Positions 55,814 through 57,500 of a DNA stretch of 64,000 nt are shown piece after piece; the first letter of the stretch is position 1; the number at the start of each line of letters is the position of its first letter. The notes below the pieces were generated by a model. That model ran no database searches and was not told the DNA's origin. It saw nothing but the letters and a program-made list of their open reading frames with translations. Location: contig CBDATS010000004.1 in the NCBI GenBank assembly GCA_965200245.1, forward strand, positions 1,024,001-1,088,000, written 5' to 3'. Origin of the DNA: a bacterium (GTDB lineage Bacteria > UBA8248). A program made the position numbers and the translations under genes.

Positions 55814-56986
55814 TTAATCCTGTTTAATGTCAACCGGCTCAATATCTTCAAGTTCAATAACCGAACCTCTACCAATTTTTTTACGGACCCCCTTAATTCG
55901 GATCGGCAAATTCCACATAGGACGGACAATATCGTTCATCATACCTTCCGGCACTTTGACTTTGTGTTCTTTTCCTTCCAGATCGATCACTTTGATTTTG
56001 TCATCGTTTTTTTTGGTCGAGTCTGCATATAGCAACCTACCTTGTATGATAGTAGATTCAGTAGCAGTTTGATGTATAGTGGTACTGGCGGTACCCGGTC
56101 CAGTGAGTATTGAAAGTTCCGATACAGGTTTGGTCATCTCTGCAATGCGCTCAACCCCATTTCTGATAGTTGTAAAACCCACTTGACGAATACGTTTTCC
56201 ATCTGGCGCGATTTTCTTCGCGAGGGAAAGAAAGTTTCTCCGATACGTGGGGTCAGGGATTCGCTCCTGTATTTCTGTAACCTTCAAGTTGTTTGCAAAC
56301 TCCACCAAGTCCATGAATTCATCAATAATTTCGTTTGTCTTCGACGTTTTGGGATGAGGTATTCCTGGAAGAGATGGCTGGCCCGTCGAGCGACCCAGTC
56401 TCATTGTCACCGAAAAGCTAGCAGCCCTTGGGGTAGAAAGAAACAACCTATATTCTGTAAGGTTTTTCGGAGGCGGGCCACTTTCTCGAAATGGTCGGTT
56501 GTTTTTGCGTTCGACTATACGCTGAATCAGCTTCGACGAGTCGGTCACGCGGCTCAGAAATTCATCAGATGTTACAACCCCAAAGCCCACGTCTTGGCCG
56601 GATAGGCTCAACTGCATCTCATTTTCTTCCAATTCGATGCCTCGCAATCCAAGGTGTCTTTTGAAATGGATTTGTTCCAGGAGATTGCGCAGTTCCTCTG
56701 CGATTTCTTCAGGAGGATTTTGAGCGAGGGCCTTTGCCACGATTTGCTCGGCCTGGCGAGTTTTATTGCAATCCAACGCCAGAGTCCCGGCGCTACGATG
56801 GAGTATCGAGTATGTCGGCTCGATTATTGCGTGGTTTTTGTCCAATTCAGCGATGGCCCTGAGTTCAAGATCCAATGCTTTTTCAAAAAAATCCATCGAT
56901 TGTTCTCTGTCGCCTTGTACTCGCGCGGTGAGAGCAAGTTCCGCAAATTCCATCGCTTCATTATGAAAATCCCTAAGATCATTCAT
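55814..56986 (-). CDS. uncharacterised ~390-aa protein: N-terminal TPR-like helical domain and beta-rich (possibly OB-like) C-terminus
   Basis: HNEAMEFAE...ALDLE..A...EPTYSILHRSAGTLALDC...PPEEIAEELR; open throughout; start overlaps the upstream stop (ATGAATGA). Confidence 0.75.
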   Translation of the reverse strand: MNDLRDFHNEAMEFAELALTARVQGDREQSMDFFEKALDLELRAIAELDKNHAIIEPTYSILHRSAGTLALDCNKTRQAEQIVAKALAQNPPEEIAEELRNLLEQIHFKRHLGLRGIELEENEMQLSLSGQDVGFGVVTSDEFLSRVTDSSKLIQRIVERKNNRPFRESGPPPKNLTEYRLFLSTPRAASFSVTMRLGRSTGQPSLPGIPHPKTSKTNEIIDEFMDLVEFANNLKVTEIQERIPDPTYRRNFLSLAKKIAPDGKRIRQVGFTTIRNGVERIAEMTKPVSELSILTGPGTASTTIHQTATESTIIQGRLLYADSTKKNDDKIKVIDLEGKEHKVKVPEGMMNDIVRPMWNLPIRIKGVRKKIGRGSVIELEDIEPVDIKQD

Positions 56987-57500
56987 TTTCCTGAACCTCG
57001 GCGAGAGGCTTGCCAAATTCGACTACGATTGCGAAAGCTGGAAGAGTGTTGGCGGAACGGGTCGTCTGCTTCAGCTTTTGTCGGACTCTGTTTTTAACAT
57101 CACTTTCGGTTCCTTTTCGGATGCCCGAGATTTCCAGCCTCGCCTTCTCTTGGAAGGGTTTGGTTGATTTGTCCCCCACCCAATAATCAAAACCTGTTCC
57201 TTTACGCGAACGTTCAAGCACCGTATAGCCAGTCGCCTTCTTCGTCAGTAAAACTGCAATACCCATCGCACCATGTTCGGTAGCTACTTCAGGGTCATTC
57301 CATGTTCTCCGGGACTGTTCGTTAACAGGCGGCCAATTTAGCTTGAAGATACTTTTCAGGAAACCCCTGACATGGAGTTGGACTCCTATATCATGTCCCT
57401 GTGATTCCAGACACACACCGGCAGCTTCTGCCAATGCAAGGCCGAATTTCGGTGAAATTGCGGGGTGAAAACCATTAACCAAGTCATTTAAGTTCAGCAT
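56979..57500 (-). CDS. uncharacterised 173-aa protein, PD-(D/E)xK-like nuclease candidate
   Basis: ATEHGA...KGTGFDYW...ARLEISG..R..QK..Q spacing matches a restriction-endonuclease-like core. Confidence 0.7.
   Translation of the reverse strand: MLNLNDLVNGFHPAISPKFGLALAEAAGVCLESQGHDIGVQLHVRGFLKSIFKLNWPPVNEQSRRTWNDPEVATEHGAMGIAVLLTKKATGYTVLERSRKGTGFDYWVGDKSTKPFQEKARLEISGIRKGTESDVKNRVRQKLKQTTRSANTLPAFAIVVEFGKPLAEVQENE

Follow-up and report, generated by a model that had tools for sequence, protein, structure and literature searches.

In toxin-first type II toxin–antitoxin (TA) modules, such as HigBA, MqsRA and HicAB, the toxin is encoded ahead of a modular antitoxin. Shedu, a system of defence islands, joins a PD-(D/E)xK nuclease domain (DUF4263) and variable regulatory N-terminal domains in a single polypeptide, SduA. 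Among other nucleases of this kind, Hjc and the lambda-type exonucleases carry the canonical D/E-x-K motif with its Lys. In Hachiman, a DUF1837 nuclease, HamA, is held by a helicase partner, HamB. Here we describe a pair of genes, A and B, in a stretch of 64,000 nucleotides from a bacterium (GTDB lineage UBA8248; contig CBDATS010000004.1, positions 1,024,001 to 1,088,000), which we call the window. A encodes a small protein with a predicted restriction-endonuclease-like fold, and B encodes a larger protein whose N-terminal domain (B-N), similar to tetratricopeptide repeats (TPR), is predicted to dock on A. We propose, with about an even chance of being right, that A and B constitute a conflict module of two genes, complete in itself, that moves horizontally and belongs to an undescribed family; the module would follow toxin–antitoxin logic and would probably serve defence or addiction.

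Both genes are read from the minus strand, with A upstream of B; the coordinates of all features are collected in Table 1. A reading made from the DNA letters before this analysis (the sequence-only reading) had described two open, overlapping reading frames (ORFs) of 173 and about 390 aa in an AT-richer patch. This description agrees with the ORF calls, with the junction sequence and with the base composition, the GC content being 0.44–0.49 across positions 55500–57500 as against 0.58–0.66 at 50000–55000, the region of the spermidine-synthase and agmatinase genes. The overlap between the start codon of B and the stop codon of A suggests translational coupling. The start of B is the ATG at 56986 in all 25 aligned homologues; an upstream TTG would give a protein of 400 aa. 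Because A and B have 801 and 963 homologous 90%-identity clusters, respectively, and because the aligned homologues are 58–88% (A) and 49–82% (B) identical to the window proteins, we regard both as real genes and not as chance ORFs. Where the source gives a name for these relatives, it is “hypothetical” or “tetratricopeptide repeat protein”.

We also looked for signals around the genes. An Rfam scan of positions 53000–60000 gave zero matches. Between 55300 and 58400, two promoter-like sites were found, which is not above the 3.5 expected from shuffled sequences, and the eight terminator-like sites (3.4 expected) showed no informative placement. A repeat search around the pair did not find a flanking repeat pair of the kind that would mark an insertion. 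In two RNA libraries, X6 and X7, short identical contigs covered parts of A and B, and one of them (56915–57257) spans the A/B junction. These contigs were not counted as transcription, because neighbouring pseudogene remnants were covered too and such libraries may contain DNA.

To describe the distribution of the pair, we scanned 185,579 genomes, one per species, with A. Relatives of A were present in 444 of them (about 0.24%), spread over many phyla, and the best 80 of the 444 stretches were kept. These 80 loci come from Nitrospinota, Latescibacterota, Dehalococcoidia and other Chloroflexota, cyanobacteria, Acidobacteriota, Gemmatimonadota, Thermodesulfobacteriota, Brocadiaceae, Omnitrophota, Thiomargarita and others. 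In every one of them B lies directly downstream of A, and the junction is either an overlap or a gap of up to about 35 nt. The reciprocal count was made on 80 metagenome loci found by B-N alone. Two of these are cut off by the edge of their contig; in 72 of the 78 testable ones, A is the gene immediately ahead of B. The homologues therefore co-occur as a pair, and the genes that flank them are common only to close relatives. Overall, A and B form an adjacent, co-oriented and tightly coupled pair that is inherited as a unit.

The pair is also an accessory, horizontally moving two-gene unit. The genome from which the window is taken contains one copy, and among 40 relatives the pair occurs in 3 of 22 congeners and in none of 18 genomes outside the genus. 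The pair is present twice in the genomes of two species (L020/L039 and L070/L075). We found the pair on four plasmids, one of them conjugative, and on four contigs of IMG/VR, where two further contigs have an orphan B-N; the phages in INPHARED gave zero matches for A and zero for B-N. One of the three congeners has a divergent form of the locus (L084, positions 399–2010, minus strand), in which an A at 31% identity keeps the D, E-x-S-G and R..K..Q residues and is followed by a 155-aa TPR-like partner and then by a third overlapping ORF of 204 aa.

The AlphaFold model of A, with a predicted local distance difference test score (pLDDT) of 88.1 and a predicted template modelling score (pTM) of 0.87, has a helix and a hairpin in its N-terminal sub-domain and, besides this, a core of the alpha-beta-beta-beta-alpha-beta type (helix 70–90; strands 93–100, 103–109 and 120–127; helix 132–145; strand 155–161). 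In a wide structural search of this model with VIA-align, about 40 of the 50 listed chains were nucleases of the restriction-endonuclease fold. The top match was the alkaline exonuclease 3syy_A (Z 5.8, root-mean-square deviation 3.5, 96 residues aligned), followed among others by 3iey_A (Z 5.0) and 1gef_A (Z 4.7), at sequence identities of 9–14% and in a range, Z below 8, where by the tool's own warning a match may reflect a mere common arrangement. The nuclease classes represented were Hjc, tRNA endonucleases, lambda exonuclease, EcoRV, I-Ssp6803I, Cas4, HamA, MspJI and cap-snatching endonucleases, and the tRNA endonuclease matches span both sub-domains (residues 8–173). Foldseek against the PDB gave the CinB nuclease as its best match (E 0.038), followed by the SPARDA nuclease and by tRNA-splicing and influenza PA endonucleases. 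A sequence-profile search of the PDB returned only a designed repeat protein (E 6.1). In the ESM Atlas, the look-alike clusters of A are all “hypothetical”, with one lead to Hjc at 0.78. The PD-(D/E)xK-like fold that had been suspected for the small protein is thus supported by the model and by the VIA-align rows, which place A in this superfamily at the level of the predicted fold and with weak scores.

The predicted active site of A departs from the canonical one in a specific way. Its motif is D...E-x-S, with Ser125 at the position of the canonical Lys and with an invariant Lys, K142, one helix further on; the model places D105, E123, S125, G126 and K142 on the second and third strands and on the helix that comes next. 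The corresponding motifs of the window protein are E75, GFD(105), LEIS(125)G and the residues R138, K142 and Q145 within RVRQKLKQ, all of which are invariant or nearly so. Counted over 144 A sequences from all fetched loci, D105, E123, G126 and K142 are kept in 144/144, Q145 in 143/144, S125 and R138 in 142/144, and E75 and H36 in 140/144. The sequence-only reading had already pointed out the Ser at the usual Lys position and a later Lys within QKLKQ, and the near-constancy of S125 together with the constancy of K142 bears this out.

The AlphaFold model of B (pLDDT 76.1) has three parts. Over residues 1–111, B-N aligns with TPR proteins at Z values of up to 12.8 in VIA-align; in the TPR clan of Pfam it stays below the gathering score, with TPR_2 as the best family, which scores 15.1 bits where 27 are required. 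We call the domain “TPR-like” because its Pfam scores are sub-threshold and because helical repeats match easily in this range of Z. At the other end of the protein, Foldseek matched the C-terminal region to the oligonucleotide/oligosaccharide-binding (OB) domains of SSB, RPA and RMI proteins at a probability of 1.00 and E values of 4e-3 to 3e-2; for 1ue7_B, the match (E 7.1e-3) has a target template modelling score of 0.64 and a root-mean-square deviation of 3.2 over 84 columns. The modelled C-terminus of B is thus predicted to be an OB fold that can be superimposed on known OB domains. The middle domain, which is not assigned to any known fold, lies between these two parts and is separable from the OB fold, as middle-only and OB-only proteins both exist. 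A profile search of the PDB did not find a sequence relative of the middle domain, and for B as a whole it gave weak rows for TPR or MIT domains, the best at E 0.0043. Residues 116–390 gave only leads below 0.9 in the ESM Atlas (unnamed proteins of 304–312 aa, DUF6575 and DUF7946). The TPR-like N-terminus, the PRAASF segment and the beta-rich, OB-like end that had been recognised in the translation of B therefore all reappear in the model and the fold searches.

To examine whether the two proteins could interact, we modelled full-length A with residues 1–118 of B and compared the result with three controls. The interface score ipSAE was 0.69 (0.67, 0.69 and 0.72 in the individual runs), compared with 0.00 for the best control; of 157 solved complexes, 116 attain the mark applied to this score, as do 2 of 215 mismatched pairs. 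The runs agreed in at least 88% of contacts, with a partner pLDDT of at least 86. The predicted interface comprises residues 13–22, 66–76 (the helix around E75) and 97–105 of A and residues 4–24 and 55–72 of B. In the model, these three segments of A, among them the nearly invariant hairpin between strands 1 and 2 (97–105), which ends in D105, sit in the groove of B formed by residues 4–24 and 55–72, and this groove is the most conserved motif of B. The modelling supports, as a prediction, a direct binding of A to B, and two A–B fusion proteins agree with a physical partnership.

Residues 1 to about 125 are the one part of B that all loci have in common. The 80 genome loci contain 35 long forms of the window type, 44 forms of 110–223 aa and one disrupted gene. 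With the B-N profile we found 4208 representatives (50%-identity clusters) at E <= 1e-3, the shortest of 114 and the longest of 512 aa, and tallied what follows B-N in the best 150 of them. A middle domain and an OB fold follow in 67/150, no tail in 23/150, an OB fold only in 11/150 and a middle domain only in 12/150, some of which are probably truncated ORFs; 35/150 have other tails and 2/150 are A–B fusions. By BLASTP the 35 other tails fall into 31 singleton classes. A Pfam scan of 60 B-N representatives of odd length found seven with a recognisable domain other than TPR, namely Dam (with an NPPY motif), N6_N4_Mtase, RecX, HU, NB-ARC, a nucleoside-deoxyribosyltransferase-like (NDT-like) domain and HTH_3, the last just below the Pfam cut-off. 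A multi-pass membrane tail and a tail with a DTG motif (retropepsin-like) were also seen. The forms of B that we have seen adjoining A are long, short, OB-only (L034 and L108), HTH_3, Bac_transf and MotA_ExbB (L143). HTH_3 is fused to B-N in L004 and is a separate downstream gene in L003, in both cases sub-threshold at about 21–22 bits against 23. The B with a Bac_transf tail lies on a Hymenobacter plasmid, and hhalign gives its N-domain a probability of 98.8%. A metagenome scan for loci with Dam-, RecX-, HU-, NB-ARC- or NDT-tailed B gave matches to the N-domain only and recovered none of these forms.

These data indicate that B is a constant TPR-like domain, predicted to dock on A, joined to one of many interchangeable tails. 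The earlier idea of a TPR/OB sensor was right about a TPR-like domain and an OB fold; the OB tail is only one of the interchangeable modules, so that B is better described as an adaptor with a swappable module. We considered the possibility that the middle domain and the OB fold are encoded by a separate gene in the loci with a short B. It was rejected, as a profile search of translations of the A/B strand found pieces of them outside the B frame only where B is disrupted. In four loci, a conserved gene of about 250 codons, which has no Pfam match, starts at the stop codon of the short B (L008, 8926–9675; L009, 8941–9717; L010, 8944–9708; L058, 9087–9836). It was seen in one clade of Latescibacterota/Gemmatimonadota and suggests a three-gene variant with the variable module as a separate protein. 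One representative of 225 aa (P0241) consists of two tandem copies of B-N.

The pattern of gene loss differs between the two genes. An A without an adjoining B-N gene was not seen in the 80 genome loci, in three IMG/VR contigs recovered with A, on the plasmids or in the relatives. B-N without A was seen eight times, in six metagenome loci and two viral contigs (L094, which is the same contig as L168, L105, L120, L152, L154, L161 and L171). Furthermore, a decayed A stands beside an intact B in L038 (TGA and TAA stops plus G126R), in L058 (a frameshift) and in L151 (a TAA stop); a different genetic code as the reason for the stops was considered and rejected, the stops being a mixture of TGA and TAA. 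The single broken B, with a TAA at codon 53, is that of a congener (L002, identical to L083), and the A that adjoins it is the only carrier of S125P among the 144. Since A is never found alone, B alone is tolerated and A decays beside B, the direction of loss is, in these small numbers, as expected if A is harmful without B. The suggestion of the sequence-only reading that B restrains the nuclease would fit both this asymmetry and the predicted interface beside D105.

Two of the orphan B-N genes lie on predicted viral contigs (L168, 3995–4345; L171, 3839–4246) and could be phage-borne antidotes. In three other loci without A (L152, L154 and L161), a near-identical short B is preceded by a DUF4351 protein of 269–291 aa, so that A has apparently been replaced. 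To the eye, this DUF4351 protein resembles Rpn proteins (recombination-promoting nuclease/putative transposase).

The surroundings of the pair are defence-like to a moderate degree. In the window, the sequence-only reading had taken the type ISP, type III Res, HerA and AAA_14-DUF4143 genes near the pair to be broken; the first three are truncated, and the AAA_14-DUF4143 gene appears essentially full length. With the exception of this neighbour, the intact pair lies in a decayed defence island. For the surroundings in other genomes, we surveyed 140 immediate neighbours of pairs, after 11 of 151 had been dropped as belonging to near-duplicate loci; the survey covers neighbours of the pair only. 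About 24–26 of the 140 are TA, restriction–modification, mobile or conflict genes, including HicA, MazE, RelB-like, PIN, MNT, Fic, AbiV, MmeI, type I, Eco57I and GmrSD genes as well as C5 methylases, Uma2, HNH, NACHT, caspases, transposases and an integrase. Most of the other neighbours with a Pfam match look ordinary. Two large proteins that adjoin pairs look like parts of conflict systems, one with a PNP_UDP_1 phosphorylase and a phosphoribosyltransferase domain (L018, 9685–13797) and the other with PNP_UDP_1 and a STAND NTPase domain (L087, 6960–9857).

Some further features of the window were noted. The HerA gene, which has lost about 140 C-terminal profile positions, abuts the Res gene without its N-terminal half (61289–63999, minus strand), as if a deletion had fused two loci. 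An intact AT-rich ORF of 280 aa (58751–59593, minus strand) that has no Pfam or PADLOC match lies in the interval that separates the pair from the type III Res fragment; to the eye, its N-terminus resembles a nucleotide-binding domain of the TIR or deoxyribosyltransferase type. Four close copies of a 12-nt unit (CCGATAAGACCC-like) lie at 55398–55452, on the left border of the AT-richer patch and just after the AAA-DUF4143 gene. Further away, a 307-aa protein (45661–46584, minus strand) consists almost entirely of ankyrin repeats (Ank_2, 3.3e-65), which is unusual for a free-living bacterium.

Table 1. Positions of the gene pair, of its parts and of neighbouring defence genes in the window.
Feature	Positions	Strand	Description
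Gene A	56979-57500	minus	173-aa ORF, restriction-endonuclease-like (PD-(D/E)xK-fold); proposed nuclease/toxin
Gene B	55814-56986	minus	390-aa ORF made up of an adaptor, a middle domain and an OB fold (predicted)
A/B overlap	56979-56986	minus	ATGAATGA (TCATTCAT on the plus strand); ATG of B overlaps TGA of A by 8 nt
Predicted catalytic core codons of A	57075..57188	minus	D105 57186-57188; E123 57132-57134; S125 57126-57128; K142 57075-57077
B residues 1-115 (B-N)	56642..56986	minus	Five-helix TPR-like adaptor domain, predicted to dock on A
B residues ~118-295	56102..56635	minus	Conserved alpha/beta middle domain; PRAASF, RNF and APDG..RQVGFT motifs
B residues ~305-385	55832..56074	minus	Predicted C-terminal OB fold
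AAA_14-DUF4143 ATPase	54074..55198	plus	PADLOC candidate PDC-S01, 12-399 of 422; appears near full length
Mrr_cat_2 remnant, type IIG/ISP restriction enzyme	58304..58609	plus	Pfam 1.2e-15; 52 aa; PADLOC REase_MTase_IIG 73-124 of 1646
Type III restriction enzyme, C-terminal half, without N-terminal half	59839..61410	minus	PADLOC REase_III 491-985 of 989; Pfam RE_endonuc
HerA of SIR2-HerA, without C-terminal part	61289..63085	minus	PADLOC HerA 1-543 of 686
SIR2 gene	62932-63999	minus	Runs off the window end

The analysis shows how the two genes are built, conserved and linked, how patchily they occur, to which fold class A belongs, how the tails of B vary and which of the genes decay; a nuclease activity of A, its inhibition by B, a trigger and a biological role of the pair are inferred, as follows. 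A would be a small nuclease with D105 and E123 in its active site, probably joined by E75 as the third acidic residue, and with Lys142 contributed by the next helix. B-N would grip the hairpin 97–105 of A beside the catalytic Asp and so keep the nuclease silent. The C-terminal module of B, here the middle domain and the OB fold, may bind nucleic acid, either in the autoregulation of the operon or in sensing an invader or single-stranded DNA; more generally, the tail could anchor the complex to nucleic acid, bind an operator or sense the trigger, and the OB fold of the window protein points to single-stranded nucleic acid. If B were lost, degraded or diverted, A would cut nucleic acid and stop the cell or the invader. 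Such a module could serve addiction, abortive infection or both. The modularity of B is antitoxin-like, because B-N is fused to HTH_3 in L004, is followed by an HTH gene in L003 and has HU, RecX and OB fusions elsewhere.

Several points weigh against this proposal. The likeness of A to nucleases is weak, with a best Z of 5.8 and zero Foldseek matches at E <= 0.001. The canonical Lys is a Ser in A, and the idea that K142 compensates for it is drawn from conservation. The A–B complex is a model, and the calibration of its score holds only roughly with our own alignments; the two A–B fusions, for their part, may be artefacts of assembly, produced by frameshifts where the genes overlap. The asymmetry of decay amounts to three loci against one. 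Tails such as Dam and N6_N4 methyltransferases, NB-ARC, MotA_ExbB, Bac_transf and the NDT-like domain are unlike those of a simple antitoxin. Finally, conflict-type genes are about one fifth of the neighbours, counted at pair loci only, and most of the others with a Pfam match look metabolic or housekeeping.

A broader form of the proposal, which we put forward tentatively and think somewhat improbable, makes B-N a universal “plug” by which dozens of exchangeable modules, sensors or effectors, are attached to one dedicated nuclease, A. Its 4208 representatives would then form a large and so far unrecognised class of split, modular immune systems, in which some tails, being similar to host proteins of DNA metabolism, may be decoys or guards. 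If this were so, a phage factor directed against SSB, HU, RecX or Dam would draw B away from A and so release the nuclease, and the B-N genes that viral contigs carry without A would be antidotes of the phages. The same tails lend themselves to a different reading, an unlikely one in our judgement, in which A is constitutively competent and B is not an inhibitor; as in restriction enzymes of several subunits, the tail of B (here the OB fold) would provide specificity by recruiting A to a nucleic-acid substrate, so that the methyltransferase-tailed forms would be true restriction–modification pairs. Most tails of B-N are indeed DNA-binding or DNA-modifying (OB, HU, RecX, HTH_3, Dam with NPPY, N6_N4_Mtase), the fixed linkage and the predicted binding would suit a targeting subunit, and the context of the window is rich in restriction genes. 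However, about 40 of the 80 genome loci carry a short, tail-less B that would be unable to target anything, and the predicted interface on the D105 hairpin would fit occlusion better than recruitment. The asymmetry of decay also argues against targeting, since A degenerates beside an intact B and since B is broken only once, next to the only S125P A. Moreover, the metagenome scan recovered none of the methyltransferase-tailed forms, so that no adjoining A is on record for them.

It is far less probable that the polarity of the pair is the reverse of the one proposed here, with the tail of B as the effector and A as a catalytically silent, nuclease-fold sensor or regulator, as in systems that exchange effectors on a constant core. 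A lacks the Lys that is canonical for the nuclease motif, and the diversity of the tails is extreme (31 singleton classes in 35), including MotA_ExbB, membrane, DTG-motif, NDT-like and NB-ARC tails, which would be in keeping with a silent A and with exchanged effectors. Yet D105, E123 and K142 are invariant in 144/144, a degree of conservation that argues for a working active site; the commonest forms of B have no tail or an OB fold, neither of which is an obvious effector; and B can do without A, but no A was seen without B. We give hardly any credence to a role in housekeeping or mobile-element DNA processing, in which a resolvase- or repair-type nuclease would act with a single-strand-binding accessory and have no part in conflict. 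A fold that resembles those of Hjc resolvases, lambda-type exonucleases and tRNA-splicing endonucleases, the OB fold of B and the many housekeeping neighbours (RuvC, RecJ, tRNA synthetases) are what this reading would predict. It is difficult to reconcile with an occurrence that is patchy even among congeners (3 of 22) and that extends to only about 0.24% of species genomes, with variable neighbourhoods, with two copies in two genomes and an occurrence on plasmids, and with a base composition foreign to the host. The conflict module with toxin–antitoxin logic is therefore the reading that we retain.

If this reading is true, a widespread and wholly unannotated family, found in at least a dozen phyla and in thousands of 50%-identity clusters, joins the TA and defence repertoire. 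Its design would be unusual, namely a rearranged PD-(D/E)xK nuclease under control in trans, exerted by way of a small helical adaptor which has become fused to very many modules. The adaptor–nuclease interface would then be a compact, portable switch that wires immune sensors to effectors, and the catalogue of tails would point to what the systems sense. More generally, intact “hypothetical” pairs within decayed defence islands are worth mining.

As for known families, the sequence-only reading could not match the pair to a named system, and our searches reached the same result: in Pfam, NCBIfam, PADLOC-DB 2.0.0 and PHROGs, A has no significant match and B has zero matches above cut-off, and in PADLOC-DB 2.0.0 zero families were found for either protein even at E <= 1. 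No description of the A–B pair was found in the literature searched, which excludes bioRxiv supplements and papers without a Creative Commons licence, and none of the passages of PMC7159879 that concern TPR, two-gene systems and OB folds describes it. A methyltransferase, as would be expected of restriction–modification, was not found in or beside the pair of the window. Compared with the closest solved folds, those of archaeal Hjc, tRNA-splicing endonucleases and lambda-type exonucleases, the modelled A has the common alpha-beta-beta-beta-alpha-beta core at sequence identities of only 9–14%; it differs from Hjc and the lambda-type exonucleases in its E-x-S motif. To our knowledge, none of these three families is encoded with a TPR-like partner.

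Hachiman resembles the pair in having a PD-(D/E)xK-fold nuclease and a second protein encoded by two genes, and HamA (8vxy_A and 8zue_A) aligns with the model of A at Z 3.5–3.7, which is low. Unlike in Hachiman, the partner is TPR-like with an OB fold and is not a helicase, and we did not find a sequence relationship between the systems. Shedu and the pair have in common a constant PD-(D/E)xK-type nuclease (predicted here), highly variable regulatory or sensing modules and an occurrence in defence islands. In contrast to Shedu, the variable module is located on a second protein and is joined through a TPR-like adaptor, and A lacks a match both in PADLOC-DB, which includes Shedu models, and in Pfam, DUF4263 included. 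With type II TA modules, the pair shares two small coupled genes that are accessory, patchy, sometimes multicopy and often beside TA or restriction–modification genes, a partner that is predicted to bind the enzyme, and the tolerance of an orphan partner while an orphan enzyme was not seen. Some of the B partners carry HTH_3, like HigA/Xre antitoxins. The pair differs from type II TA modules in that A and B match no TA families in Pfam, NCBIfam or PADLOC, in that the proposed neutralising domain of B is TPR-like and the tails of B go far beyond DNA-binding domains, and in that the proposed toxin has a predicted restriction-endonuclease fold; we know of no type II toxin family with this fold. 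Overall, the closest parallels to the pair would be the toxin-first type II TA modules by logic and, by architecture, the Shedu-type nucleases and the two-protein Hachiman system.

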